From contig JANQRS010000068.1 of assembly GCA_028284445.1 (NCBI GenBank), positions 205,300 through 269,299 of the forward strand: DNA of 64,000 nt, read 5' to 3'. This DNA comes from Calditrichia bacterium (GTDB lineage Bacteria > Calditrichota > Calditrichia > RBG-13-44-9 > J075). Position numbers and translations under genes: made by a program. Below are positions 3,210 through 54,041 of the stretch, piece after piece (the stretch's first letter is position 1; the number at the start of each line of letters is the position of its first letter). Under the pieces are notes generated by a model. That model had not been told where the DNA came from and searched no databases. It was given only the letters and a program-made list of their open reading frames with translations.

Positions 3210-5525
3210 ATGCCATCAAAGTCTGATCAACTCGACATGTCCGCGAGTAACGGATCAACCAGCAATGGTGCCACCCTTGATCCAAAAGAGATCGAACAGA
3301 TCATCGTCACCCCGCCATCTGAAATTGTCAAAAGAGACGGACGAGTTGTTCCTTTTGATGTCGCCCGGATTGAGAAAGCATTAGTCAGTTGTTTTAAAAG
3401 CATCGACAAAAAACCGAATACGCCTGTTGAGGAGCTGGCGAAGCAGGTTGTCAATATTGTTGCTGCCAAATATGAAGCGCCTTCAGTAGAGCAGGTGCAG
3501 GATATCGTTGAAATGGTTCTGCAGGCTGCCGGCGAATACGAAGCCGCTAAGGAATACATCCTTTATCGCGCTGAACATGCGAAGCAGCGTCAGATTCGCC
3601 CAATTCCCGATAAGGTGCGCGAAGCCTTTTCCGCTTCCGATCAATACTTTCCTACCCAGCTTCAGAAATTTCAATTCTATGACAAGTACTCCCGCTTTAA
3701 TTATGAACTGGGCCGTCGCGAAACCTGGGTAGAGACTATTGATCGCGCCGTAGATTTTCTCCGTGAAGTATCCGAGTTCCGCTTGCCGGCGCAAATGTAT
3801 GAGCGGGTTCGCAATTCGATGTTGCGTATGGATGCCATGAGCTCGATGCGTCTGCTGGCGATGGCAGGACCAGCGGCACGTCGCAGCAATATCTGTATTT
3901 ATAATTGTAGCTACATGCCGGTTGACAGCATTCACGCCTTTGTAGAAGCGCTGATTATTTCGATGTGTGGTTGCGGTGTTGGGTATTCGGTAGAAAGCCG
4001 CTATGTCGAGAGTTTCCCCCGTGTGAAGCGTCAATTAAAGGCCCGTCCGATTGCCTATACCGTCGAAGATTCTGCAGATGGTTGGGCAGAAGCGCTGCGC
4101 TTTGGCTTGCAGACCTGGTTTGAGGGCGGGGATATCGTTTTTGATTATTCAGAAATTCGTCCTGCCGGTGCGCCGCTACGTATAAAAGGTGGACGGGCTT
4201 CAGGACCGCAGCCGCTTCGTAAGATGCTTGATTTTGTTCGTCAGCGCATTCTGGCGCGTCAGGGCAGCTTCCTGCGTCCGCTTGATGCCCACGACATTAT
4301 GTGCGCGGTTGGTAATGCCGCTGTTTCCGGTGGCGTGCGTCGCACAGCAATGATTTCTCTCTTTGATTTTGATGATAAGGACATGCGCCTCTGTAAGAGT
4401 GGCGATTTTGAACGCCATAATAGCCAGCGTTGGAATGCTAATAACTCGGCGGTTTGGCCGGAGCGTCAGTTGAGCCAGGCCGAAGTTGCCGGACTGGTGC
4501 TCGATATGGTTGAATCGGGTCGCGGTGAGCCGGGTATCTTTAACCGTCACGCTGCCGTTCAATCCCGTCCGGAACGCCGTTTGGCTGCCGAATTCGGCAC
4601 CAACCCCTGTGGTGAAATTATTCTTCGCCCGAATCAGTTCTGTAACCTGTCGATCGCAGTTGCGAGAGCAGATGATACCTACGAGACATTGAAGGATAAG
4701 GTTGAAGTTGCCACGATCATTGGTACTATTCAGTCCATGGCCACTCACTTCCCGGGGCTGCGTCCGCAATGGCGTGCGAACTGTGAAGAAGAGCGTTTGC
4801 TCGGCGTTGATATTACCGGTCAGTTGGACAGTCCGGTTGCGCAGGATGCAAAAGTGATGGAACAATTGCAGCAGGTTGCTGTTGAGACCAACCGTCAACT
4901 CGCTGAAACCTTGCGCATCAATCAGTCTGCCGCGGTTACCTGTGTGAAGCCTTCCGGTAACTCTTCGCAGCTCTTTAACTGCGCGCCTGGTATTCACGCC
5001 CGCTGGTCCGACTACTACGTTCGCAATGTTCGCGTTGGCACTCATACACCCATCTTCAAGGTATTGCGCGATACCGGCGTGCCAATGGATCCGGAAAACG
5101 GCCAAATGCCGGAAACTGCAGATACTTGGGTAATTCACTTCCCGGTGAAGTCTCCTGAGGGCTCCAAGACCCGTAAGGAACGCAGCGCAATTGAGCAGTG
5201 TGAATATTGGCTGCAGAACAAAGTGCACTGGACCGAGCATAATCCCAGCGTAACCATCACCTATCAGCCTGATGAAGTGATTGATCTGTTCCGCTGGATT
5301 TGGAAGAATCAGGACAAAATTGGTGGAATGGCCTTCTTGCCGGCTTTTGATGCGCAGTATGATCAGATGCCGTTTGAAGAAATTACCGGCGAAAAATTCC
5401 AGGAACTGGCGAAGGAATTCCCGGAAATTGATTTCTCGAAGCTTTATCGCTACGAGGCAGAGGATTACACAACCGCTGCCCAGGAACTGGCCTGCCTGGC
5501 GGGATCCTGCGATATCGATTTCTAG
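3210..5525 (+). CDS. nrdJ: Ribonucleotide reductase, class II (adenosylcobalamin-dependent) type with N-terminal ATP-cone
   Basis: ATP-cone motif (VKRDGRVVPFDVARIEKAL) is followed by an RNR catalytic domain with the class II-type active-site region TNPCGEIILRPNQFCNLS. ATG at 3210 has a GGAGGAG box about 7 nt upstream. The ORF-track start at 3144 most likely over-extends into the leader. Confidence 0.85.
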   Translation: MPSKSDQLDMSASNGSTSNGATLDPKEIEQIIVTPPSEIVKRDGRVVPFDVARIEKALVSCFKSIDKKPNTPVEELAKQVVNIVAAKYEAPSVEQVQDIVEMVLQAAGEYEAAKEYILYRAEHAKQRQIRPIPDKVREAFSASDQYFPTQLQKFQFYDKYSRFNYELGRRETWVETIDRAVDFLREVSEFRLPAQMYERVRNSMLRMDAMSSMRLLAMAGPAARRSNICIYNCSYMPVDSIHAFVEALIISMCGCGVGYSVESRYVESFPRVKRQLKARPIAYTVEDSADGWAEALRFGLQTWFEGGDIVFDYSEIRPAGAPLRIKGGRASGPQPLRKMLDFVRQRILARQGSFLRPLDAHDIMCAVGNAAVSGGVRRTAMISLFDFDDKDMRLCKSGDFERHNSQRWNANNSAVWPERQLSQAEVAGLVLDMVESGRGEPGIFNRHAAVQSRPERRLAAEFGTNPCGEIILRPNQFCNLSIAVARADDTYETLKDKVEVATIIGTIQSMATHFPGLRPQWRANCEEERLLGVDITGQLDSPVAQDAKVMEQLQQVAVETNRQLAETLRINQSAAVTCVKPSGNSSQLFNCAPGIHARWSDYYVRNVRVGTHTPIFKVLRDTGVPMDPENGQMPETADTWVIHFPVKSPEGSKTRKERSAIEQCEYWLQNKVHWTEHNPSVTITYQPDEVIDLFRWIWKNQDKIGGMAFLPAFDAQYDQMPFEEITGEKFQELAKEFPEIDFSKLYRYEAEDYTTAAQELACLAGSCDIDF

Positions 5526-5666: not shown

Positions 5667-6515
5667 ATGTCTAAATCTTTAAAAATGTTTCAGTTGTTTA
5701 CAGGGATTGTTTGTTTGCTGATTGTCTCACAAAATGTATTCGCGCAGACGCCGGATTTTAGCAAGCTGACCGGTTTGGGGGAGGTGCGCTACCACAAAGT
5801 TGAATCAGAGATTATGGAGCATACCTATTATCTTTTTGTGCGGCTTCCGGCGGACTATCAAGAAGACAAGAAATATCCAACCGTTTATTTGCTGGATGGC
5901 GGGGCTACCTGGCCAATACTGGCAGCCTACTACAATTATCTCCATTTTGGCGAGGAAGTACCAAGCTCTATTATTGTGGGGATTTCTTACGGCAGCAACA
6001 ACTGGCGTAAAGGCAATATGCGCGGTCGCGACTTTACGGCAAAGTCGGAGGAGCGTGATTATTGGGGAGGCGCGCCCAAATTTCAGGAGGTTTTTGCCGA
6101 GGAGTTCTTTCCATTGATTGAAAAGAACTACGCATCCGATGCTTCACGGCGAGTTATTTTCGGCCAGTCACTCGGAGGACAGTTTGTGCTGCATGCAGCG
6201 CAGAGTGCGCCGGACCTCTTCTTTGGATATATCGCCAGCAATCCGGCGCTTCATCGCAATTTAGAGCTGTTCTTGAAAATGACACCGGAAGGGAGTTCCG
6301 GATCCGATCAGCCGCGATTGTTTGTTGGTAGCGGCTCGGATGACGTGCCGCGTTTTCGTGAGCCGGCGGTAAAGTGGATCGAACACTGGTCTCAGAAAGA
6401 AGGCCTGCCCTGGGCATTGAAAACGGCTACCCTGGATGGGCATACCCATGGTTCAGCAGTGACTGCGTCGTTCCGGCAGGGGATGGCCTGGGTGTTTCCT
6501 GATACCAAAAAATGA
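5667..6515 (+). CDS. Secreted alpha/beta-hydrolase, putative esterase (esterase D / enterochelin esterase-like family)
   Basis: Signal peptide (MSKSLKMFQLFTGIVCLLIVSQNVFAQ). The nucleophile elbow GQSLGG is preceded by YPTVYLLDGG, typical of the putative-esterase family. GGAGG lies 5 nt upstream of the ATG at 5667. Confidence 0.7.
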   Translation: MSKSLKMFQLFTGIVCLLIVSQNVFAQTPDFSKLTGLGEVRYHKVESEIMEHTYYLFVRLPADYQEDKKYPTVYLLDGGATWPILAAYYNYLHFGEEVPSSIIVGISYGSNNWRKGNMRGRDFTAKSEERDYWGGAPKFQEVFAEEFFPLIEKNYASDASRRVIFGQSLGGQFVLHAAQSAPDLFFGYIASNPALHRNLELFLKMTPEGSSGSDQPRLFVGSGSDDVPRFREPAVKWIEHWSQKEGLPWALKTATLDGHTHGSAVTASFRQGMAWVFPDTKK

Positions 6516-6533
6516 CCGTAAGGACATGCTGCT

Positions 6534-7424
6534 ATGAGTGCTGGAAACATATTGCTGCTACTTCTTCTGGCGGCCATGTGGGGGCCGTCATTTCTCTTTA
6601 TAAAGGTTGCTGTTCAAGAAATACCGCCGCTGACGATGTCCGCATTTCGGACCATGCTGGGCGGCGGTGTCTTGTGGTTCTTTCTGAGAATGCGTCGCCA
6701 GCGCATGCCGGGGCGTGGGCCGATCTGGAAGCATTTTGCCATCTCCGGCCTTTTTGGTCAGGCTATTCCCTTCGCTATGTTTGCCTGGGGAGAGATCTAC
6801 ATCGATAGCGCTCTTGCATCTATTCTGAACGGCACAACGCCGCTGTTCACCATCATTATTGCGCATTATTTTACTGAAGACGACCGCCTGAGCCGTGTAA
6901 AGGTCTTTGGATCGGTTGTGGGCTTCCTGGGGCTGGCGGTCATTGTTACGCCGGAGTTGATGAAGGGGGTTTCCGTTAATTTACTCGGCTTGATCGCGGT
7001 AACTATTCCGTCTCTCTGCTACGGCATCTCGATTGTCTACAGCCGCCAGACCTTGCGCGGCCTTGGCCCATTGGTCGCTCCGGTGGGCCAGCTGGGGATG
7101 TCGGCCTTGATGCTGCTGCCCTTCGCACTGTTCTTTGACCAGCCTTATGCCATGCCCTTGCCGTCTACAGCCGCCTTTACGTCGCTTGTGGCACTGGCCC
7201 TGCTGGGAACCTGTCTGGCCTTTGTCGTCTACTTCTATTTGCTTGAGCGCAATCGCGCCTCTCACGTGTCTATGGTGACTTATTTGGTGCCGATCTTCGG
7301 CATCATCCTCGGCGTTGTGGTGCTTAAAGAGAGCCTGGATTCCTACGCTTACTTAGGATGCGCATTGATTCTTCTAGGGGTGATGATTGTGAATGGAGTG
7401 TTTAAGAGGAAGAGAAAAGATTAG
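6534..7424 (+). CDS. DMT-superfamily (EamA-like) permease
   Basis: About 10 predicted TM helices and two EamA-like halves. The N-terminus LLLLLLAAMWGPSFLFIKVAV is typical of drug/metabolite exporters. Confidence 0.85.
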   Translation: MSAGNILLLLLLAAMWGPSFLFIKVAVQEIPPLTMSAFRTMLGGGVLWFFLRMRRQRMPGRGPIWKHFAISGLFGQAIPFAMFAWGEIYIDSALASILNGTTPLFTIIIAHYFTEDDRLSRVKVFGSVVGFLGLAVIVTPELMKGVSVNLLGLIAVTIPSLCYGISIVYSRQTLRGLGPLVAPVGQLGMSALMLLPFALFFDQPYAMPLPSTAAFTSLVALALLGTCLAFVVYFYLLERNRASHVSMVTYLVPIFGIILGVVVLKESLDSYAYLGCALILLGVMIVNGVFKRKRKD

Positions 7425-10513: not shown

Positions 10514-11752
10514 TTACTTGATCAATGCCATCTTGATAGTCTGCTGAACTTGATCTGACTTCATAATCGCAATGTAGACACCAGCAGGTACTACATTACC
10601 AGCGTCAGAAGTGGCATCCCAAACAACTTCATATACACCGGGCTGAACAGCATCGTTATACAACGTCTTAACTTTCTGACCCAATGTGTTGAAGATTTCT
10701 ACCGTAACCGGGGAAAGTTCTTCACGAGTATCGGGCACGTCGAAACGAAGCGTGGTGCTCGGGTTGAAGGGGTTCGGATAATTCTGATGCAATTGGAAAT
10801 CTTGCGGTACGTCTACACCGATGGTTGTCAAGTCGCTGCCGGAACCTTGCGGCTTAGCGCTGATCGGACCGTGCTCGGTGCGTTCACCATTGGCATTGAT
10901 GTCAACAAGCTTATACCAGTAGGTATTGCTGTTGGCAACGTTGCGATCGATAAATGCATATTCCGTTTGTGCATTGGTGTTGAATTGACCTTCCAGGTCT
11001 GCGTTGTTCTGATAAGAAGCGATTTCAGTGTATTCGCCGCCGCGCTCAGTTGCACGCTGAATAGCAAATCCGAGGTTGTTGGATTCACTGGCAGTGGTCC
11101 ACTTAATCGATACCTGGCCATCCTGGCCGGTAGCAGCAAACAGGTAAAGCTGAACTGACAGCCCGCCGTCTGATCCGAGAGTTCCGGGAGAACCGGAATC
11201 ATCACTGATACCAACGATTGCCGGCAAGCTGTAACCAGCTTCACGAACAGTCGTTTCTGCCCAAAGTGCGCCATTGTTGTTGTCAGCAGTCAAATTACCT
11301 GTGAAAACAACCGCACGGCCATTCGGGCTGGGGTGTGTACCATCGTAGTTAACAGTATCGATAGTTGTAAAACCACCGAGGCCGTCCGGAGCTGCCAGGT
11401 GAATTTCGTCGGTTGCGTTTGCCAGGATGAAACCGTCGCCATAGACATAATCAGCCGTGTAATCGCCATTCTCGGCGGTATTACCATTACGGCCAAAAAC
11501 GAAGTGGCTGAAGGGTTCTGCGATAGCCGAAGAGGTGACAAATACAGTGTCACCACCAGTACCGGCATCAGCAATACGCCAACCATTGAAATCGATTTGG
11601 TTCGGAGTATTGTTGAATACTTCAAACCATTCACCATCAGAATCCGATACATCCTGTGGATTCTTCATAATTTCGACGATAATGACATCACCCGGACTTT
11701 GGGCAAACGCCACTGTCATCATAACCAATAAGAACGTAACTATGAACCTCAT
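10514..11752 (-). CDS. Secreted lamin-tail-domain (LTD) protein with T9SS C-terminal sorting domain
   Basis: Signal peptide (MRFIVTFLLVMMTVAFAQ). LTD-like segment (IIVEIMKNP...GEWFEVFN...NGWRIAD). C-terminal roughly 80-aa Por/T9SS-type sorting domain (PNPFNPSTTLRFDVP...YIAIMKSDQ..TIKMALIK). ATG at 11752 is preceded by AAAGAGGAG. The ORF-track start at 11851 is probably too far upstream. Confidence 0.7.
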   Translation of the reverse strand: MRFIVTFLLVMMTVAFAQSPGDVIIVEIMKNPQDVSDSDGEWFEVFNNTPNQIDFNGWRIADAGTGGDTVFVTSSAIAEPFSHFVFGRNGNTAENGDYTADYVYGDGFILANATDEIHLAAPDGLGGFTTIDTVNYDGTHPSPNGRAVVFTGNLTADNNNGALWAETTVREAGYSLPAIVGISDDSGSPGTLGSDGGLSVQLYLFAATGQDGQVSIKWTTASESNNLGFAIQRATERGGEYTEIASYQNNADLEGQFNTNAQTEYAFIDRNVANSNTYWYKLVDINANGERTEHGPISAKPQGSGSDLTTIGVDVPQDFQLHQNYPNPFNPSTTLRFDVPDTREELSPVTVEIFNTLGQKVKTLYNDAVQPGVYEVVWDATSDAGNVVPAGVYIAIMKSDQVQQTIKMALIK

Positions 11753-46963: not shown

Positions 46964-49900
46964 TCACACCCAGGCCCGCAAATTACTACAATCATTCTCG
47001 GCATCCTGTACACCGCAGACCCTGCAGCGATTGAGGTCATAATAGAGATCGGTATCTACGGCCTCGCGGCGCTTGATGACCAAAACGATCGGAAAGCTGC
47101 TACGGTCCTCTTTGTTAAATGATGGTTGGTCTGCGAGATCATCATGGCGCTTTCTTTTTTCATCCATCCAGTAAAATTGATAGAGCGGTTCGCTTGTTTC
47201 CCGGTTCATAAATTGACATAAGGCCCGGCTGTACTCATACCATTCTCGAAAGGCGTCGAGGTTCCCAATCGGTAGAATGCGAATCAGCCGTATTTCGTGG
47301 CGCGGTACGTCACTTTGGTGCTTCATCGGGCGCTTCTTTTGGAAAAAGCCAAAAAGCCGATTGAGCGTGAAGTAGCTGTTTTGACAGGATGCGTCCTGGA
47401 AATAATCAACATTGAGAACCCAATCATCACTTTCGTCGCCTGAGGGCGAACAATAGGTTGGCTGACCGCGAAACACCAGCTGGTTTAGCACCTGAGAGAT
47501 TTGGCCGGGATGCGTCGCATTGCTGCCGCAACAAAAAATGCGGGCATATGGCGAAGACGGCGTTGGCAACTCTTCGGTCTTCGCCTGGGTCATGCTGCTA
47601 CAACACTGGTAGTTCTGGCTATGCCAAAGCCGCGAATCGCCGGTGCGATTGATTTGCGGATTTAGGCGCAGGTTATTGGCGCCGGCAACAAAATCCTGAT
47701 ATGCTGAAATCCGGCAGTGGGTCATGCCGGGACAGGCATATTTGCCACTTACACCGTTTTCATCCGGATCCATCATTACCTGTTGGAATTCTGTAATGGT
47801 GCTATCCTCACCACATTTGCGGCGAGTGAGCCGATCCAGTACTTCCGGTACCCCGGGCGGTTGCGGCTTCTCGTGCGTATCAAGCCTGCGCTGCAATGCT
47901 TCCAGCTCGCTGCGTCCATACATCTCGGCGATATCAAGTTCTTTTTCGCGATGTTTACGGCCATCGTTTACGTAGGTGCGCACAATGCGGCTGGTTTCTT
48001 CAGCGACGGCCTCAAAAATCGGTGAATCTTTTCGAACCGGGACCAGAGAAGCGTAACCACTCAGGGCGAATCCGTTGCCTGCCGGGTCGAGGGTGATATT
48101 TCGCAGGTGCCGAAACGAAGGCACGCGAATATCTTTGGCGCTTGCCTGCCAGAGCTGCTCCAGGAGATCCATGGTTGGCGGCACAAAGTCGATGCCGGAT
48201 AGCCGCGCCATGTAATTTGCCAATGCGCCCGGACGATTTGGAAAGCAACTGCTGATTTCCACAAATTGCTTTTCATGATGGGGCAATTTTTGTGGATTGA
48301 TGCCACTGTTCTCGGCACGCGATAGTGTGCGCCTGGCCCCGGCAATAATTTCTTCTGCATCCGACAAAGAGTCGGTGATTGTTTCACCAACCAGCTCACT
48401 AGTATAGTGATCGTAGCGGGCATGTGCCGGATAGCTGGTATCTAATGCCACCAGTTCATTGTGCATCTTGCAAAGGGCATCATAGTAGCGGGAGGCATCA
48501 CCGAGGATCAGACGCTCACGTTCATCGCCCAATGAAGTTGACAAGAGAATCAGCGGCAGGCGAAATTTCGAGGGTTGGCGCGTTTTTAAGCGTTCCAGTG
48601 CCCGTACGCAGCGAGCAAGCAGCAGCGAAGAATGTTCAATTTCATCATGATCGATGACCAGAATTTGCGGCTGATGCTCGCGAATACAAGCCTCGATACT
48701 GATGCTGTCCGCCTGGTTGACGACCCGCGTTGGAGAATTGATGGTGTCAATTTCCGGCACGTCGTCCGCCTCATCGGGGAATCGTCCGCCGGTCACGAAT
48801 GTCTGCGGCCAGGCAAGATCAAAAGTGTCTTTATTGTCTTTATCTTTTAGCACTGGATAGCCGATTCGTTCATCCGGAGCAACTGCTAAAAAGGCAATGT
48901 TTTCCTGAACCAGCGCCGATTTTTTCTCGAAACTACCCGGTAGCGAATTCCAGATATGTTCTACCATATAGTGGTTGGCCTTGTTGTTCCCCACAATCAG
49001 GATCCTCGGCCATTGATTTTTCGGCATCTTTTCCAGGGAGCGGACTTTCAGAATGGCGGTCCAAAGTTTATGGCCAAGGGTTTTTCCCTGGTTATGTTTC
49101 GGATAAACCAGCACGATGCGCCGATGGCGGGCGCGATAAGTAAGGTAAGAAATCTGATCGCTGCGGCTCACGCTCATGATGGTACTGATATTAGTGCGAT
49201 CCGCCTGTTCAAATACTGCCTGCACACTTTCTTCATCCGGCACCATACTGATGATCAATCGCGAACGCTCCAGGTTCACACGCGAGGGCATCGAGGCTTC
49301 GTTTGCCTCTCCAATCACCATTGGCACCAGGATGCGCGATTCCGGGTGTATGATATTGCCGCGCGGATCGCGGCTTTTGTAAATGCGCCGATGGGTGCTG
49401 GCCACGCCATATTCCCCAAGCGTCTGGTTTTCCCCAGCGTAGATCAGCTCGTCGCGGCGACGCTCAACAATCACCGCGTGGCTAGAGAGCATTTCAATGC
49501 GAATATCGGGAGTCACTACTTCCAGAAAATAGTCCCCGTTTTTCCCGCTGAGCATCTGATTGACTTCCCTTTCCACCACGCGCTGCCCGAGGCTGCCAAA
49601 TCCCAGGAAAACGATGTGCCCTTGCACCATCATCAATTGGGTGGAGAGTCGTTTGTTGAAGTAATCTGCGAAAGTAACATCCGGATTGATCGCGGAAATT
49701 ACCAGATTGCTGAACCAGGCGAAGAAGACCCCAATGGCCAGGATGATCTGATCCGCTTCTGTAAGGGTATCCAGCATCTGATATTGATCGACGGATACAA
49801 ATACAATAGGGGTAAAGAGGAAGATAAAGGTCAGCACCAGGCCCCCAGGCACCAGCACCGGTTTGTTCAGGAGGAGGGCGAGGGCAAAGTGCCGGAGATA

Positions 49901-50686
49901 TTTGTAGGCATTCTGAATGATGCCGCGAACATCTCTTTCATGAAAGGTAACCGGAATCAGAATGGTGCTCATTAATCGATTGCCAAGACATCCCCAAAGG
50001 AAGAACACCAGTGCCGTAAGGGTTGCGCAGCACCACCAGGCCATCTTTTTCATCTCGAAAACAACATCGGTTTCCTGACCCGTCGGCAAGATAAAAATCG
50101 TTTCCGGCCGCCAGAGGAATTGATTCTGCCCGAGAATGCTCAGGAACCACAGTTCGATAAAAATGATGCCCAGCAGGATAATGAAGAGGGTTAGTGAATC
50201 AAACCAAAGCCAGCGATTGGGACGATTGCGGGATTGCGGTGCTTCCGCTGCGCGAATATCACGGAAGGCGCTGCGGTATAGCTTGAAAATTGACAAAATG
50301 AGGTAGCCCAGGCAGAATGCGGCTGCTAAAAAGCAGTAGATATAAAAATAGGTGGTAGCGGATTCTGTTTTGGAAAGGAAGTCGACAATCAGGTAGTGCG
50401 GAAAGAGTGCGACGATTAGCAGAATCAGCAGGGTGTTACGTGAATAGATCAGGGCATTTTCCAGCCCGGCCGGCCAATTTTTGATTGCCATCCAGGCCGG
50501 TATCCACAGTAGTGCCAGGAAGCCCATACAGAAGAGCAGGTGAGCAACGCCGGTCAGCACGTAGTGCCGCACCTGGATATCATCGAAAAGAACCACAGCG
50601 CAGACAGTGGATACGAGGGTGGTCGTCAGGCTTGGCAATAAGATCAGGTAGAGAAAGAAGCGGCGGATATCGCCTTTTTCCCGCAA
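46964..50686 (-). CDS. Very large (1240 aa) polytopic membrane protein with cytoplasmic Rossmann/RCK-like and Cys-rich regions, function unknown
   Basis: Uninterrupted 3.7-kb ORF. About 350 aa of TM helices at the N-terminus, then a GxGxxG segment (HIVFLGFGSLGQRVV), a long cytoplasmic region and a Cys-rich C-terminal region. I recognise no family for it. Confidence 0.6.
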   Translation of the reverse strand: MREKGDIRRFFLYLILLPSLTTTLVSTVCAVVLFDDIQVRHYVLTGVAHLLFCMGFLALLWIPAWMAIKNWPAGLENALIYSRNTLLILLIVALFPHYLIVDFLSKTESATTYFYIYCFLAAAFCLGYLILSIFKLYRSAFRDIRAAEAPQSRNRPNRWLWFDSLTLFIILLGIIFIELWFLSILGQNQFLWRPETIFILPTGQETDVVFEMKKMAWWCCATLTALVFFLWGCLGNRLMSTILIPVTFHERDVRGIIQNAYKYLRHFALALLLNKPVLVPGGLVLTFIFLFTPIVFVSVDQYQMLDTLTEADQIILAIGVFFAWFSNLVISAINPDVTFADYFNKRLSTQLMMVQGHIVFLGFGSLGQRVVEREVNQMLSGKNGDYFLEVVTPDIRIEMLSSHAVIVERRRDELIYAGENQTLGEYGVASTHRRIYKSRDPRGNIIHPESRILVPMVIGEANEASMPSRVNLERSRLIISMVPDEESVQAVFEQADRTNISTIMSVSRSDQISYLTYRARHRRIVLVYPKHNQGKTLGHKLWTAILKVRSLEKMPKNQWPRILIVGNNKANHYMVEHIWNSLPGSFEKKSALVQENIAFLAVAPDERIGYPVLKDKDNKDTFDLAWPQTFVTGGRFPDEADDVPEIDTINSPTRVVNQADSISIEACIREHQPQILVIDHDEIEHSSLLLARCVRALERLKTRQPSKFRLPLILLSTSLGDERERLILGDASRYYDALCKMHNELVALDTSYPAHARYDHYTSELVGETITDSLSDAEEIIAGARRTLSRAENSGINPQKLPHHEKQFVEISSCFPNRPGALANYMARLSGIDFVPPTMDLLEQLWQASAKDIRVPSFRHLRNITLDPAGNGFALSGYASLVPVRKDSPIFEAVAEETSRIVRTYVNDGRKHREKELDIAEMYGRSELEALQRRLDTHEKPQPPGVPEVLDRLTRRKCGEDSTITEFQQVMMDPDENGVSGKYACPGMTHCRISAYQDFVAGANNLRLNPQINRTGDSRLWHSQNYQCCSSMTQAKTEELPTPSSPYARIFCCGSNATHPGQISQVLNQLVFRGQPTYCSPSGDESDDWVLNVDYFQDASCQNSYFTLNRLFGFFQKKRPMKHQSDVPRHEIRLIRILPIGNLDAFREWYEYSRALCQFMNRETSEPLYQFYWMDEKRKRHDDLADQPSFNKEDRSSFPIVLVIKRREAVDTDLYYDLNRCRVCGVQDAENDCSNLRAWV

Positions 50687-50836
50687 TGGATATTGAAAAT
50701 CAGCGCTGATGCTTCACTCCTTCCTGGTGGTCTTGGGTATTAATATATCAAATGCTGTTGATTTTCGCACATGCCTTCGCTGATCGGTGTGTGTCTTTAT
50801 CTTTCCGCTCGTAGAGCACAATTCTGAATTTTTTCA

Positions 50837-50990
50837 AAACCTTTCGACACGGATTTCCACGGATGAACACCGATTCCGACAGATGATAGATAAGAAAAAA
50901 AGCTCTAAATGCTTGACAGGATCAACATGATTGACATGATAAGGATTCCCAAGCTTAACTACATCCTGTTGATCATGTAAATCCTGTCAA
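50837..50990. repeat. Composite repeat copy A: 4x heptamer array (CACGGAT/CACCGAT/GACAGAT, 10-bp period) + 25-bp palindrome
   Basis: Heptamer array ACACGGATTTCCACGGATGAACACCGATTCCGACAGATGATAG at about 50845-50890. Palindrome arms GACAGGATCAACATGATTG and ATCCTGTTGATCATGTAAATCCTGTC. About 78% identical to copy B. Confidence 0.6.
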
Positions 50991-51387
50991 AGTTCTCTTT
51001 AGAGAGGGCATGTTTTGCCGTAACCTTGTTAACGCGGTTGTCAGAAAGTGGTGTAAACAAAGTTGCCAATTGTCGAATTTGTCGAATCGATTTCTCTTCC
51101 TGCATACCATTCTTCCCAATTTTGCTTTTTGTGTTTTAAGTTATTTGTAAACAGTGGTTTGTGATCTTGTTGATTTGCGTTTTTTTGCGGCGTTTGTTGC
51201 TTTTGCGGCATTTGGCACCGGCGCAGGTATTCAAATTGCAGTAAGAACTGGCAACGAGGCATGATAGTGCTGAGGGAAAATATGAGGCATGTAATTTGAG
51301 GACGAATGTCTCGTGAAATTGTCAACACGATGGAGTGAGAACAACTAAATAGACCGTTTTCACTGATATTTGAGAAGGAGGATTCTC

Positions 51388-52515
51388 ATGATACGGCAGC
51401 TAAACTGGATGTTAAGCGGATTTCTGATGATGGCCTTTGTAATAGGCATGACGACAAATGGATTGTCCCAATCAGATCGTCCGGCGACGAAGCGCTCACG
51501 CGTTGAGTCCAAAGAAGATAAAAAGAAAACCACTCGCGGCCGATCCGTCATCGGCGCCAAGAAGCGCAGCAATGATGATGACAAGAAGGTCGTGCGACGA
51601 AATAGCGGCAACCGCAATAGCGAAGCCCGCCAGCGAAACGATCGCAGTCGAAATCGCGATACAAGACAGCGAAACGAGCGCCGCCGCAATAATGATGGCG
51701 TTCGCAATGATAAGCCGCAGCAGCGAAATGATCGCCACACCCGCTATGACCGCAATCAGGATCGGCGTGACAATCGCGATGCGCGTAATAATAGAAACAA
51801 CCGTGGACGTGACAACCGCAATGGTCGCATAGATCGTAATCGTCATCGCGATCACAATCGTGGCAAAAACCATGATCGCAGCCGTCGCTTCGAAAACCGT
51901 CATCATGATCGGGACCGCGGATATCATCACTACGATTGGCGCAAGGATTATCGTCGCTATCGCTGGAACCATCCGTACTGGAAGAAGCATCATCGTCCGC
52001 GGAAGAAGTATTACTATCGCTATGGTTGGTCGCCGTTTTTTAGCCTGACCTTGCGTCCCAGTATCCGCTTCAGCACCTATACAAGGCCGTTGATCAGAAG
52101 CAACAGTCATATCGTTTACACCAAAGAATATGATAGCTATGATTACGTGCCGGGTGATCCGATTGGATACGCAGTACACATAAGCTTTAACGGCCGGGTC
52201 CGTGTATACGATCGATACTACGATCAATCACCGGAGCTGGTAGATGAATACTATATCTCACACCGCAAGTTGCGTCGTCTTGAACGCATCCTGGATCGCG
52301 GTCGCTACTACGACTACGAACATTGCCTGCTGGACGAATATGGCGATGATGATCATCCGGGATACGCAACAATAGGTTACCGTACCTCTCGATATCGTCC
52401 GATGCGCACGGTATCACTCAACTTGTCCGCACCCCGGCGTCACCAACCGGAGTATTTTGTGGACTTCAATGAAGAAATCGAGGAAATGTTATACGACCGT
52501 GGTTTCTTTCAGTAA
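51388..52515 (+). CDS. Membrane-anchored, extremely Arg/Asn/Asp-rich low-complexity protein
   Basis: GAGAAGGAGG lies 7 nt upstream of the ATG. N-terminal hydrophobic anchor (LSGFLMMAFVIGMTT). About 200 aa of RNDR/RNER/DRNR low-complexity sequence. The C-terminal roughly 140 aa are non-repetitive and Tyr/Arg/Asp-rich. A stem-loop lies just downstream. Both the opposite strand and a second frame are also open, as expected for repetitive DNA. Confidence 0.5.
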   Translation: MIRQLNWMLSGFLMMAFVIGMTTNGLSQSDRPATKRSRVESKEDKKKTTRGRSVIGAKKRSNDDDKKVVRRNSGNRNSEARQRNDRSRNRDTRQRNERRRNNDGVRNDKPQQRNDRHTRYDRNQDRRDNRDARNNRNNRGRDNRNGRIDRNRHRDHNRGKNHDRSRRFENRHHDRDRGYHHYDWRKDYRRYRWNHPYWKKHHRPRKKYYYRYGWSPFFSLTLRPSIRFSTYTRPLIRSNSHIVYTKEYDSYDYVPGDPIGYAVHISFNGRVRVYDRYYDQSPELVDEYYISHRKLRRLERILDRGRYYDYEHCLLDEYGDDDHPGYATIGYRTSRYRPMRTVSLNLSAPRRHQPEYFVDFNEEIEEMLYDRGFFQ

Positions 52516-52523
52516 CACCGCAG

Positions 52524-52560
52524 CCCTTCGGCCGGACCACCGACCCCGGCCGGAGGGCAT
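52524..52560 (+). terminator. Stem-loop terminator after the Arg/Asn/Asp-rich protein gene
   Basis: CCCTTCGGCCGG-ACCACCGACC-CCGGCCGGAGGG is a 12-bp GC stem with one mismatch, located 9 nt after the stop codon. Confidence 0.45.
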
Positions 52561-52778
52561 TTAAAAACAATTTCCCGGCTACGGGATGATATAGATAGAG
52601 CTCGACTGACCGTCGCTCGACAACAACAAGGAACGGCACTCACTGCCTGTAGATAGCATTCAGAATTGGAATTTTTGGCAGCATCAGTTCATCCAAACTG
52701 TGAATGACATCCGGGCGGTGAGTGCCAGGTTGGTTTCTACAAACACAATCACACCGACAAAACATTAGTGAGGGCATC

Positions 52779-52940
52779 ATGAAAAAACCATTGGGATTTA
52801 TCCTGTTTAGTTATTTTCTGTTTTGGCTGGTTGGCATTGTTGTTTTGGGAATCAGCAAGCCGGAGAAGGGTATGGAAATGACCCCTGCTTCCAAGGCCAG
52901 CAGCAGTGTTTCGAAGTGGATAAAGTCGATTAAAAATTAA
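52779..52940 (+). CDS. Small single-pass membrane peptide (53 aa), function unknown
   Basis: GAGG lies upstream of the ATG at 52779. Hydrophobic core FILFSYFLFWLVGIVVLGI. It ends immediately before repeat copy B. Confidence 0.35.
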   Translation: MKKPLGFILFSYFLFWLVGIVVLGISKPEKGMEMTPASKASSSVSKWIKSIKN

Positions 52941-52945
52941 GGATT

Positions 52946-53100
52946 AAAACCCTTCGACACAGATGCACACGGATTTTCACAGATTTACACAGATGATAGG
53001 CAAGAAGGAAGAAAAAGAATTTCGACAGGATCAACAGGATTGTCATGATAAAGACCTCCGATCAGAATTTTATCCTGTTGATCCTGTAAATCCTGTCAAT
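52946..53100. repeat. Composite repeat copy B, same orientation as A
   Basis: Heptamer array ACACAGATGCACACGGATTTTCACAGATTTACACAGATGATAG at about 52957-52997. Palindrome arms GACAGGATCAACAGGATTG and ATCCTGTTGATCCTGTAAATCCTGTC. Confidence 0.6.
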
Positions 53101-53214
53101 TCTTTTTTCTGGGTTTATTCGTGAAAATCAGTGTTGATGGGTTTTATTTTTGTAGTGTCTTTTTGTACGAATTGACCTAATTTCTTTCCAGTATTCATAT
53201 CAAAGAAACGATGG

Positions 53215-53487
53215 TTGGACACTATGAAGACCTACACCCCTATTGATTGTAACTACTACGACCGTCTTGAGGCTTTGGCAACAATGGCCAGGGTTGCCCG
53301 CATTGAATATCGAACCGACAGCGACGATACCGAAACGGTTGATGACATTATTGTTAACGTTTTCTCACGGAATGGCGCAGAATATATCTCCCTGAAAAGC
53401 GGCCTGGAAATTCGACTGGATTACCTCATTGCCGTTGATGGCCACATCAATCCGGCGGATCCATCCTGTCAGGTGCCAAAGCGATGA
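53215..53487 (+). CDS. rof: Rof-like protein (Rho-binding antiterminator family)
   Basis: TYTPIDCNYYDRLEALA...EYI...EIRLDYLI is collinear with E. coli Rof (TYQPINCDDYDNLELAC...EYL...ELRLDKI). Overlaps the next gene by 4 nt. Confidence 0.55.
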   Translation: MDTMKTYTPIDCNYYDRLEALATMARVARIEYRTDSDDTETVDDIIVNVFSRNGAEYISLKSGLEIRLDYLIAVDGHINPADPSCQVPKR

Positions 53488-54041
53488 TTCGATCATTGCG
53501 ACGCCGTGTTATACGCAAGATGCTGGGAACTTATAAACGGCGCATACAAGAAAATGTGCAACTGGATGTCGCCCACTGCCTAATGGCTGCGGCTAATATT
53601 GTTGACAAAAATCAATATGGTTTTTTGACGACCTACGGCAAAGAACCATGGCCCAACACTCGCCTTGTTCAACCAATTATTGACGAACAATTCACCTTTT
53701 GGATCGGCACCAATCCCGACCTTCGCAAGGTTGCTGAAGTCAAAGAAAATCCCCATGTCACCTTTGCTTTCCAGGACAATAAGCGCCAGGCAAATTTGAT
53801 CCTGCAAGGAAAGGCGACGATCGTTGACGATCTTGAGCTGCGCCGTAAATACTGGAAGGGAGAATGGCAGCTGTTTTTCCCCGGTGGCTCGCAATCAGAT
53901 GAATACATCCTGATTCGGATCGATGTAGAAAAAATGGAGCTGATGAGCTTCGAAGACAATGTTGTGCCGGAACCCTTTGGCCTTAAGCCGGTGAAGCTCA
54001 TAAAGCAAAATGGTGAATGGCAAACGACGAATGTCGAATGA
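53484..54041 (+). CDS. Pyridoxamine 5'-phosphate oxidase-like FMN-binding protein (general stress protein 26 type)
   Basis: Split-barrel PNPOx-like pattern (FLTTYGKEPWPNTRLVQP...FWIGTNPDLRKV...NPHVTFAF). Its 3' end is duplicated 115 bp downstream. Confidence 0.7.
   Translation: MIRSLRRRVIRKMLGTYKRRIQENVQLDVAHCLMAAANIVDKNQYGFLTTYGKEPWPNTRLVQPIIDEQFTFWIGTNPDLRKVAEVKENPHVTFAFQDNKRQANLILQGKATIVDDLELRRKYWKGEWQLFFPGGSQSDEYILIRIDVEKMELMSFEDNVVPEPFGLKPVKLIKQNGEWQTTNVE

Follow-up and report, generated by a model that had tools for sequence, protein, structure and literature searches.

TonB- and TolA-type envelope proteins share a simple build, in which an anchor is followed by a long charged linker and a small alpha/beta C-terminal domain. 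Protamines and mussel-foot adhesive proteins are well-known proteins to which the composition of an Arg/Asn/Tyr/Trp/His-rich polycation can be likened. Cyanophycin is an Arg-Asp polymer, and sigma-54 classically controls nitrogen genes. Mago nashi (MAGOH, PF02792) has the topology beta4-alpha-beta2-alpha. It is a eukaryotic, nuclear/cytoplasmic protein that forms a heterodimer with Y14 in the core of the exon junction complex. Cell-exterior functions are over-represented in sigma-54 regulons (PMC3162934). The Q-rule, a Gln at position +1 after signal-peptide cleavage, is reported from Bacteroidetes and, at 77%, from Ignavibacterium album (PMC5837995).

The gene described here lies in a 64,000-nt stretch of Calditrichia DNA, henceforth the window; its features are given as window positions on the + strand. 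By analogy, its product resembles TonB/TolA/SPOR-type envelope proteins in overall architecture, with a linker and a C-terminal domain that are both predicted to be extracytoplasmic, and with a linker whose length and repeats change while its composition is kept. It differs from them because its N-terminus looks cleaved rather than being a conserved anchor and its linker is Arg/Asn/Asp-rich, not Pro- or Ala/Lys/Glu-rich. There was also no sequence match to TonB_C, TolA or SPOR, and exbBD and tolQR are absent from the vicinity of the gene at every locus examined.

Reading frame and low-complexity region

The coding sequence (51388..52515) runs from an ATG at 51388 to a TAA at 52513-52515 and encodes 375 aa plus stop. 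The strong GGAGG box reported in the sequence-only reading could be read directly as a Shine-Dalgarno sequence, AAGGAGG, at 51375..51381, 6 nt 5' of the ATG. It is conserved in a syntenic orthologue on contig L004, and GGAG is found upstream of the start in the remaining homologous loci as well. All nine full-length relatives (eight matches at E 1e-60 to 1e-250, plus P0009) are from Calditrichia/Calditrichota metagenomes. A locus search with alignment A2 recovered four loci, all in Calditrichota-type MAGs, one of which is binned as Omnitrophota. A word-indexed search for homologues that started from the mixed alignment A3 gave only three proteins and no further gain.

As noted earlier, the opposite strand and another frame are open too: a 243-aa antisense ORF (51496-52227) and a 124-aa off-frame ORF (51458-51832) extend across the region. 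Together with the degenerate repeated words in the DNA, they could suggest a non-coding repeat, or translation of another frame or strand. We give this possibility practically no credence, and the sequence comparisons already refute it. The nine homologues conserve only the annotated frame as protein. Relative to the L004 orthologue, which is 66% identical, dN/dS is 0.08 overall and 0.068 over residues 196-375, pN is 0.25 and pS 0.79 in the low-complexity part, and every length difference is an in-frame indel. L004 has kept neither the antisense nor the off-frame ORF intact; both are interrupted differently there. The underlying DNA had been called repetitive, which holds for degenerate 21-36 nt words (64-81% identity), but Tandem Repeats Finder detected no array in the coding region. 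Because of the protein conservation, the dN/dS of 0.07-0.08, the in-frame indels and the failure of the alternative ORFs to persist, the annotated frame is taken as the coding frame. Judged by these comparisons, the ORF is a genuine gene under purifying selection and belongs to a small family restricted to Calditrichia.

Residues 29-194 (51472..51969) form a disordered, polycationic low-complexity region, in which the sequence is unconserved and the charge and composition are conserved. In the window protein it comprises ~165 residues with 28-30% R, 14-18% N, 13-15% D, 7% K, 5% H and 8% hydrophobic residues, and has a net charge of +32. An Arg/Asn/Asp domain had thus been correctly recognized, but it is shorter than the ~200 residues first estimated, and the percentages are slightly lower than the 35/20/15% given. 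Across the ten long-form proteins the region is 129-218 residues long, contains few hydrophobic residues and carries a net charge of +21 to +43. Asn ranges from 5% to 18% and Asp from 5% to 15% across the homologues, and Lys replaces Arg in several of them. The region changes through in-frame indels and through tandem repeats that differ from lineage to lineage. In these alignments, only its cationic, hydrophilic character is conserved. Because its net charge is +32, the region is a polycation rather than a balanced polyampholyte. The earlier term polyampholyte described a charged region that is indeed present and overstated its balance, as it is the net positive charge that is conserved while N and D vary.

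Probable export signal and C-terminal domain

Near the N-terminus lies a hydrophobic stretch of ~17 residues (residues 5-21). It had been read as a membrane anchor, and the hydrophobic residues are there, but the pattern is that of a signal peptidase I site with an invariant Gln28. Hydropathy and the alignment predict a cleavable type I signal peptide at residues 1-27 (51388..51468), with MIRQ, LNWMLSGFLMMAFVIGM and TTNGLS|Q as its n-, h- and c-regions and cleavage at GLS|Q before Gln28. Only M1, Q28 and R31 are invariant at the N-terminus across the alignment, and the rest is unconserved. All nine homologues have A, S or G at position -1; at position -3, eight have G, A or S and one has Leu. 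Our own heuristic picked out eight further non-lipoprotein signal peptides in the window, and seven of this small sample end in A|Q. We infer export because the invariant Gln28 follows small residues at -3 and -1 and because A|Q is the habit of the window's signal peptides. Rather than anchoring the protein, the N-terminal stretch most likely serves as a cleavable Sec/SPase I signal peptide.

This pattern is like that of Q-rule substrates (PMC5837995, PMC10653852), which have small -3 and -1 residues and a +1 Gln; the Gln is invariant in the family of the window protein, and the seven signal peptides ending in A|Q share the pattern. The Q-rule itself comes from an analysis of Bacteroidetes that also noted isolated high values in other FCB lineages; Calditrichota were outside it. 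The invariant +1 Gln and the other signal peptides of the window suggest that the rule extends to this phylum.

An aromatic/basic segment (residues 195-240, HPYWKKHHRPRKKYYYRYGWSPFFSLTLRPSIRFSTYTRPLI; 51970..52107) follows the low-complexity region. It is highly conserved and specific to the long-form Calditrichia proteins, and in alignments A1 and A2 invariant columns are packed more densely here than anywhere else. The first AlphaFold2 model begins ~5 residues upstream of this segment and has pLDDT <50 for its residues 1-33. The remaining 135 residues (241-375; 52108..52512) are confidently modelled by AlphaFold2 as an alpha/beta domain with beta4-alpha-beta2-alpha topology (pLDDT 85.7, pTM 0.83). 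From the alignments, both the ~45-residue segment and the domain are strongly conserved. The sequence-only reading had described a non-repetitive C-terminal domain rich in Tyr, Arg, Asp and His, and the peptide that it quoted is present. It had named a lack of C-terminal conservation among orthologues as evidence that would count against it; instead, identity in the C-terminal half is 58-86% across the family, alongside the low dN/dS given above. Its authoring model recognized no family, and our searches of Pfam, NCBIfam and PDB sequences with the whole protein and with the domain profile likewise returned no match. The C-terminal domain alone occurs in ~14 small secreted proteins or lipoproteins, which carry signal peptides or lipoboxes; one is named 'Lipoprotein' in Caldithrix abyssi.

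We compared the model of the domain to the PDB using Foldseek. The only meaningful matches were Mago nashi chains (3ex7_E, 1p27_A, 2j0q_C and 1oo0_A), with E ~1e-3, probability 1.00, TM 0.45-0.50 and sequence identity of 9-11%. The order of secondary-structure elements in the modelled domain appears to be that of Mago; the window domain is bacterial and predicted to be extracytoplasmic. Aligning domain alignment A3 to Mago alignment A6 with hhalign placed beta3-beta4-alpha1 in a structurally equivalent register (probability 9.7%, P 0.003), and none of the 19 domain members matched PF02792 at E up to 1. Remote homology to Mago was rejected because the hhalign result is not significant. The fold match of the model is modest and gives no functional transfer.

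Two further domains were considered. For DUF6438 (PF20033), an uncharacterised bacterial domain, the small members P0017 and P0029 score 15-16 bits (16.2 for the better of the two, 15.2 for the other) against a gathering threshold of 30; their matches are colinear and cover model positions 17-111 of 116. The window protein and 17 other domain members give no match to it, and any relation would be at the superfamily level. The domain family could merit a Pfam entry of its own or be merged with DUF6438. In its hairpin the domain carries the motif PGDxIGYxVxIxFxG, which corresponds to PGDxVxYxIxVxNxG of DUF11 repeats (PF01345); this similarity produced multi-stretch matches to proteins of 1,200-3,300 aa. 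Membership in DUF11 was rejected: the similarity is confined to a ~35-residue motif, the remainder of the domain including both helices is without counterpart, and the window protein has no Pfam match to DUF11.

Sigma-54-type promoter and proposed function

Upstream of the gene we identified a sigma-54-type -24/-12 promoter (GGTATTCAAATTGCA; 51226..51240) with GG-N10-GC spacing and a TTGC(A/T) -12 box. The predicted transcription start is ~51251, giving a 5' UTR of ~137 nt. This is the single match to GGYAYN5TTGCW in the window. The motif GGYAYC-N4-WTTGCW is found 72-162 nt upstream of the start codon in nine out of nine distinct loci (window, L004, L001, L002, L003, L005, L006, L009 and L014). 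The nine include the locus of the remote long-form relative P0037. The small stand-alone homologues lack the motif in their upstream regions. A looser form, GGYWY-N5-TTGC, has 16 other occurrences in 322 kb of strand, or ~1 per 20 kb. The motif is kept at orthologous positions despite diverged flanks. A conserved sequence of sigma-54 type thus precedes every long-form gene examined, a promoter reported here for the first time.

Further upstream, a block at 51018..51076 is 78% identical over 59 nt to L004 5111-5169, while its surroundings are unalignable. It is the only block of the distal intergenic region conserved with L004 and lies ~150-210 nt upstream of the -24 element; we regard it as a candidate upstream activator (enhancer) site. 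No RpoN or Sigma54_activat domain was detected among the 29 window ORFs scanned, which counts against the explanation favoured below. An Rfam search of 50000-54000 gave nothing above noise. We found no informative literature on sigma-54 in Calditrichota, and the conserved -24/-12 promoter gives an initial lead on a sigma-54 regulon in Calditrichia.

The overall explanation that we favour, with somewhat more confidence than doubt, is a Sec-exported protein expressed on its own from a sigma-54-dependent promoter. Transcription would require RpoN and an enhancer-binding activator, so that the protein would be made only on a specific signal. Signal peptidase I would remove the hydrophobic stretch before Gln28, as the sequence pattern suggests, and, as happens in Q-rule organisms, Gln28 would probably cyclise to pyroglutamate. 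Cleavage would leave a mature protein of ~348 residues, with a net charge of ~+37, unattached in the periplasm, at the cell surface or outside the cell. There the polycation may bind anionic polymers of the envelope or matrix electrostatically (LPS, extracellular DNA, acidic polysaccharide or polyphosphate), and the Mago-like domain and the GWSPFF segment could make a specific contact with a protein or surface and so tether or cross-link these polymers. The function is probably that of a signal-induced envelope or matrix polyanion binder, with the polyanion binding itself deduced from charge alone. The earlier proposals, a scaffold role or the binding of nucleic acid or polyphosphate, are plausible; either would take place outside the cytoplasm if it occurs.

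Other topologies are compatible with parts of the evidence. In essence, the sequence-only reading proposed an uncleaved signal anchor, which would leave the protein tethered to the inner membrane and spanning the periplasm in a TonB/TolA/SPOR-like build. The hydrophobic stretch, at ~17 residues, is borderline for a membrane helix, and TonB and TolA have a comparable succession of anchor, long charged linker and small alpha/beta C-terminal domain. We nevertheless regard an anchor as unlikely: functional anchors such as that of TonB are conserved, whereas this N-terminus is variable except for Q28 and R31, and its c-region fits the -3/-1 rule with a +1 Gln, like the other signal peptides of the organism. 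The lack of TonB_C or TolA Pfam matches and of nearby exbBD or tolQR genes also argues against it, and the small homologues are ordinary secreted proteins or lipoproteins. Sec export of a segment with ~35% Arg+Lys is energetically unfavourable, which counts against the export model. A positive-inside orientation would instead place the basic region and the C-terminal domain in the cytoplasm, as a membrane-tethered binder of nucleic acid or polyphosphate. The extreme positive charge straight after the hydrophobic segment is consistent with this orientation, Arg/Asn/Asp-rich tails are typical of cytoplasmic RNA-binding proteins, and the top fold match is a subunit of an RNA-processing complex. 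This orientation is very unlikely in our judgement, as the domain is extracytoplasmic in the small homologues, where it lies behind lipoboxes and classical signal peptides, and the conserved SPase I/Q-rule site argues for export. Moreover, Mago binds a protein (Y14), not RNA, according to the titles of PDB 1p27 and 1hl6.

The composition of the low-complexity region also allows a different role, that of a ribosomally made nitrogen reserve, cyanophycin-like in composition and under nitrogen control of the sigma-54/NtrC type. The region is rich in R (28%), N (14%) and H (5%) in the window protein and a sigma-54-type promoter is present, but the protein is predicted to be exported, and in the homologues Asn falls to 5% and Lys stands for Arg in several. 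Storage needs neither a strongly conserved folded domain nor the GWSPFF segment, and NtrC systems switch genes on when nitrogen is scarce, not when a store of it could be built up; a reserve is thus highly improbable. Within the favoured reading of an exported polyanion binder, a bolder version is conceivable, though we think it rather improbable. The protein would be a sigma-54-switched secreted 'molecular glue', likened in composition to protamines and mussel-foot adhesive proteins, that builds a matrix or holdfast by condensing or coacervating with extracellular DNA, polyphosphate or acidic polysaccharide. The Mago fold would then have in this domain its first extracytoplasmic relative from a prokaryote, which with DUF6438 would define a wider unrecognised superfamily. 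These findings overturn no existing knowledge, and the function is deduced. They give a 'hypothetical protein', from a phylum that is little studied and mostly uncultured, a definite outline: a predicted exported polycation with a confidently modelled, unannotated domain family and a recognisable regulatory input.

3' hairpin, flanking repeats and gene neighbourhood

At 52523..52558, 3' of the gene, lies a hairpin (-29.5 kcal/mol, z -3.9) whose stem is 13 bp long and whose 10-nt loop reads ACCACCGACC. Its counterpart at L004 6592-6627 has an identical loop and three double compensatory pair changes. The gene had been credited with its own terminator hairpin; the hairpin is indeed there, but no real U tract follows it. 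Its role is probably to terminate transcription or to stabilise the mRNA.

Direct repeats of ~155 nt flank the gene on both sides (50836-50990 and 52946-53099), as the description of a repeat-flanked cassette had implied. A mobile cassette was rejected because L004 has the gene in the same neighbourhood without either repeat copy. By this comparison the repeats are lineage-specific insertions. The neighbourhoods of the more distant homologues and of the small homologues are unrelated across lineages, and among the lineages compared we found no ligand, partner or conserved neighbouring gene that points to a function, which counts against the favoured explanation. Since the neighbourhoods are unrelated and the 3' hairpin covaries, the gene appears to be monocistronic. 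One small lipoprotein homologue adjoins a possible beta-barrel gene, an observation too thin to use.

Coding frame and distribution of the family

The gene lies at 51388-52515 on the forward strand (ATG at 51388, TAA at 52513-52515), behind an AAGGAGG box at 51375-51381, exactly where the sequence-only reading had placed it, and encodes 375 residues. A hydrophobic stretch (residues 5-21) is followed by an extremely hydrophilic region (residues 29-194; 28% Arg, 7% Lys, 14% Asn, 13% Asp, 8% hydrophobic, net charge +32) and by a repeat-free part, residues 195-375, in which Tyr (14%) and Arg are abundant. The low-complexity domain is therefore real, with a length nearer 165 than the 200 residues first claimed and a composition for which the earlier values were slightly high. 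The underlying DNA does repeat, though only as degenerate words of 21-36 nt; no array was reported by Tandem Repeats Finder.

We searched 5.8 billion proteins and retrieved, besides the protein itself, seven relatives of full length, at E 1e-60 to 1e-158 and 40-66% identity. One of them is named as from a Calditrichia metagenome-assembled genome (MAG). A further relative, P0009, came from a profile search run exhaustively against 1.84 billion representatives. Scanning one genome for each of 185,579 species gave only four loci, all in Calditrichia/Calditrichota MAGs apart from a 4.9-kb contig assigned to an Omnitrophota bin. The family and its domain lack annotation and are confined to one little-studied class. 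The orthologue on the syntenic contig L004 is 66% identical and shares the gene neighbourhood; the distant homologues have unrelated neighbourhoods, so the gene is a stand-alone unit. The family alignment has 61 invariant columns in the C-terminal 186 residues, where identity is 58-86%, and the sequence N-terminal to them matches by composition only. The family is solid, well delimited and uncharacterised; its conserved sigma-54-type promoter was unexpected, and its modelled fold is Mago-like.

Two other readings are that the region is a non-coding repeat and that another frame is translated. Further frames are indeed open, as had been noted: one ORF of 243 aa runs antisense, and another, of 124 aa, lies off frame. 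Both are broken up differently in L004. The two readings are refuted by this fragmentation, by conservation at the protein level, by a dN/dS of 0.068 against the L004 orthologue for residues 196-375, and by the low-complexity part, where pN is 0.25, pS is 0.79 and all 21 gapped codons are in frame. Because of the relatives, the substitution pattern, the in-frame gaps and the fragmented alternatives, the comparison identifies the annotated frame as the coding frame.

Predicted export and the charged region

Only Met1, Gln28 and Arg31 are invariant in the N-terminal part of the long-form proteins, those with the full architecture. The tripeptides preceding Gln28 are GLS, GFA, ALA, LMA, SFA, GEA and ALG, so that the -1 residue is always small, the -3 residue is small in all but one and +1 is Gln. 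We picked signal-peptide-like N-termini among the ORFs of the window by a simple hydropathy heuristic. Seven of the eight non-lipoprotein candidates end in Ala before Gln (FAQT, FAQS, FAQE, CAQP, AAQD, YAQD and PAQS; examples at 5667, 35612, 44477, 58284 and 59148 on the forward strand and at 11752 and 35553 on the reverse), and five others carry lipoboxes. Short homologues consisting of the C-terminal domain alone likewise begin with signal peptides ending in Ala, Cys or Ser before Gln or with lipoboxes; one, from a Caldithrix abyssi MAG, is named 'Lipoprotein'.

Small -3/-1 residues with Gln at +1, as in the family and in the window, are the pattern of the Q-rule known from signal peptidase I substrates of Bacteroidetes, in which the exposed Gln becomes pyroglutamate (PMC5837995; PMC10653852). 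High Q-rule values also occur in Ignavibacterium album and are not a property of the FCB group as a whole; Calditrichota are unmentioned in that paper (PMC5837995). The pattern suggests that the Calditrichia organism follows the rule, with a predicted N-terminal pyroglutamate on its exported proteins.

On the strength of the Gln28 pattern, the window ORFs and the small homologues, we read residues 1-27 as a probable cleaved signal peptide, which would make the mature protein extracytoplasmic rather than membrane-anchored as initially proposed. Export of so basic a segment costs energy, so an uncleaved signal anchor is kept as a rival reading, one that we consider unlikely. With a probable signal peptide, a charged disordered region and a small putative binding domain, the architecture is of a familiar kind.

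The low-complexity region spans 129-218 residues across 10 long-form proteins, with 24-41% Arg plus Lys, 8-16% hydrophobic residues, 5-18% Asn, 3-15% Asp and a net charge of +21 to +43. 'Polycation' therefore describes it better than the 'polyampholyte' of the sequence-only reading. Its character is conserved and its sequence is not: internal tandem repeats differ between lineages (NDRGNNNRQGN(R/H)G five times in P0009, units of the (E/D)ARSQKREVKR type in the homologue P0007), so the region evolves by slippage and duplication, constrained to a hydrophilic polycation.

The C-terminal domain

Conservation among the long-form proteins peaks in a 45-residue aromatic/basic segment, HPYWKKHHRPRKKYY-RYGWSPFF-L-L-P--RF--YTRPLI, which is absent from the small homologues. 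AlphaFold2 with eight sequences gave a pLDDT of 68, with values <50 for 33 residues covering most of this segment. A 19-sequence alignment that included the small homologues gave a 151-residue domain model (pLDDT 85.7, pTM 0.83) with strands at model residues 16-23, 34-42, 46-53, 59-65, 102-107 and 116-121, a short one at 88-90, and helices at 68-79 and 131-146.

Foldseek found no match to this model in the PDB at E ≤ 0.001. The seven best matches were all Mago nashi/MAGOH chains (E 1e-3 to 8e-3), with TM 0.44-0.50 for six and 0.37 for the seventh; all other PDB matches were at about 0.2. The predicted fold is thus Mago-like; sequence identity to the seven chains is 9-13%. We built a Mago alignment from a MAGOH query identical (100%) to PDB entry 2hyi_A, and hhalign placed beta3-beta4-alpha1 in structurally equivalent register with a probability of 9.7% (P 0.003), a score at which homology to Mago is not demonstrated. 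Two small family members gave colinear sub-threshold matches to DUF6438 (15-16 bits, where the cut-off is 30), which may reflect a superfamily link. Membership of DUF11 was rejected: the profile matches to giant DUF11-repeat proteins cover only a 35-residue PGDxIxYxVxIxFxG hairpin motif. The wider domain family is invariant at two Gly and one Leu and has no conserved residues typical of a catalytic site, and for this reason the domain is read as a probable binding or structural module.

Promoter, 3' end and flanking sequence

We aligned the upstream regions of five loci and found one conserved island, GG(T/C)A(T/C)C-N4-(A/T)TTGC(A/T), with GG-N10-GC spacing. The island shows the -24/-12 layout of sigma-54 promoters, for which the consensus is TGGCAC-N5-TTGCW. 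In the window, the motif GGTATTCAAATTGCA lies at 51226-51240 on the forward strand, 162 nt 5' of the ATG, and is the single match to GGYAYN5TTGCW in 64 kb. We surveyed all long-form loci whose upstream sequence was long enough: the motif stands 72-162 nt before the start codon in L004, L001, L002, L003, L005, L006 and L009 (GGCACCCCAATTGCA) and also 5' of P0037, a remote long-form protein 17% identical in the domain. It was not found upstream of three small stand-alone homologues. A looser GGYWY-N5-TTGC occurs 16 other times in 322 kb of strand (about one per 20 kb), and by this count its presence within a 100-nt zone at 9/9 loci is far beyond chance. The upstream intergenic regions are long (335-700 nt) and a block at 51018-51076, 150-210 nt upstream of the -24 element, is conserved; both fit an enhancer-dependent promoter. 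The 29 window ORFs that were scanned include neither RpoN nor an enhancer-binding protein. We infer sigma-54 dependence from the sequence.

An extra TGGCA(C/T)-like motif 10-35 nt upstream of -24 in the window (about 51213), L004, L001, L002, L003 and L006, with the variant TGGCC in L014, the locus of P0037, is out of -24/-12 register with any TTGC and could serve as a binding site or be the vestige of a second promoter. L014 also has a second sigma-54-type motif, GGTATTTCAATTGC, at 4064 (+), about 360 nt upstream of the 1005-aa peptidase-MA/Tricorn-like gene that comes after P0037, which hints at a shared regulon.

Under the mechanism we propose, a signal would induce production through sigma-54 and an activator, and the protein would be exported by Sec and cut by signal peptidase I. 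The disordered polycation would then bind anionic envelope or matrix polymers, and a specific contact would be made through the GWSPFF segment together with the Mago-like domain. Of these elements, the data establish coding, selection, the architecture, promoter conservation and the fold model; cleavage, location, dependence on RpoN and binding of polyanions are inferred. This predicted function fits, without being proved by, the enrichment of sigma-54 regulons for cell-exterior functions (PMC3162934).

A hairpin follows the gene at 52523-52558 (+; -29.5 kcal/mol, z -3.9). In L004 its loop is identical and its stem differs by three double compensatory changes, so the hairpin is functional; it lacks a U tract, and we call it a putative terminator or stabiliser without commitment to either. 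The gene had also been described as a repeat-flanked cassette. The two repeats, at 50836-50990 and 52946-53099, are about 155 nt long and share 74-83% identity, according to the alignment used. Both copies contain a CACNGAT tract with 10-nt periodicity, a spacer rich in A and a hairpin of about 80 nt (-31 and -34 kcal/mol, z about -5.5). They have no further copies in the window and are missing from syntenic L004 and all other loci, so they do not mark cassette boundaries; they are lineage-specific small intergenic repeats, and the element resembles small dispersed repeats of the MITE or REP type.

In locus L012 of a Caldithrix abyssi MAG (6001-7301), a 233-aa gene that weakly matches Autotransporter (beta-barrel) models comes 45 nt after the gene for P0012, a small homologue that is a lipoprotein; the two could form a lipoprotein/outer-membrane-protein pair. 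Divergent from the gene studied here and syntenic in L004 is a 1240-aa ORF (46964-50686, -), by eye apparently multi-membrane-spanning in its hydrophobic N-terminal part, with no Pfam or NCBIfam match at all. Downstream, a conserved non-coding block (about 52560-52756) separates the 3' hairpin from a 53-aa ORF with one hydrophobic helix (52779-52940, +; MKKPLGFILFSYFLFWLVGIVVLGI...), whose N-terminal 25 residues are kept in L004 (6886-7035). A 90-aa ORF at 53215-53487 (+) has a weak match, at E 8e-5 and far short of the cut-off, to NF008636, the Rho-binding antiterminator Rof; its 88-aa counterpart in L004 lies directly upstream of a PNPOx-like gene.
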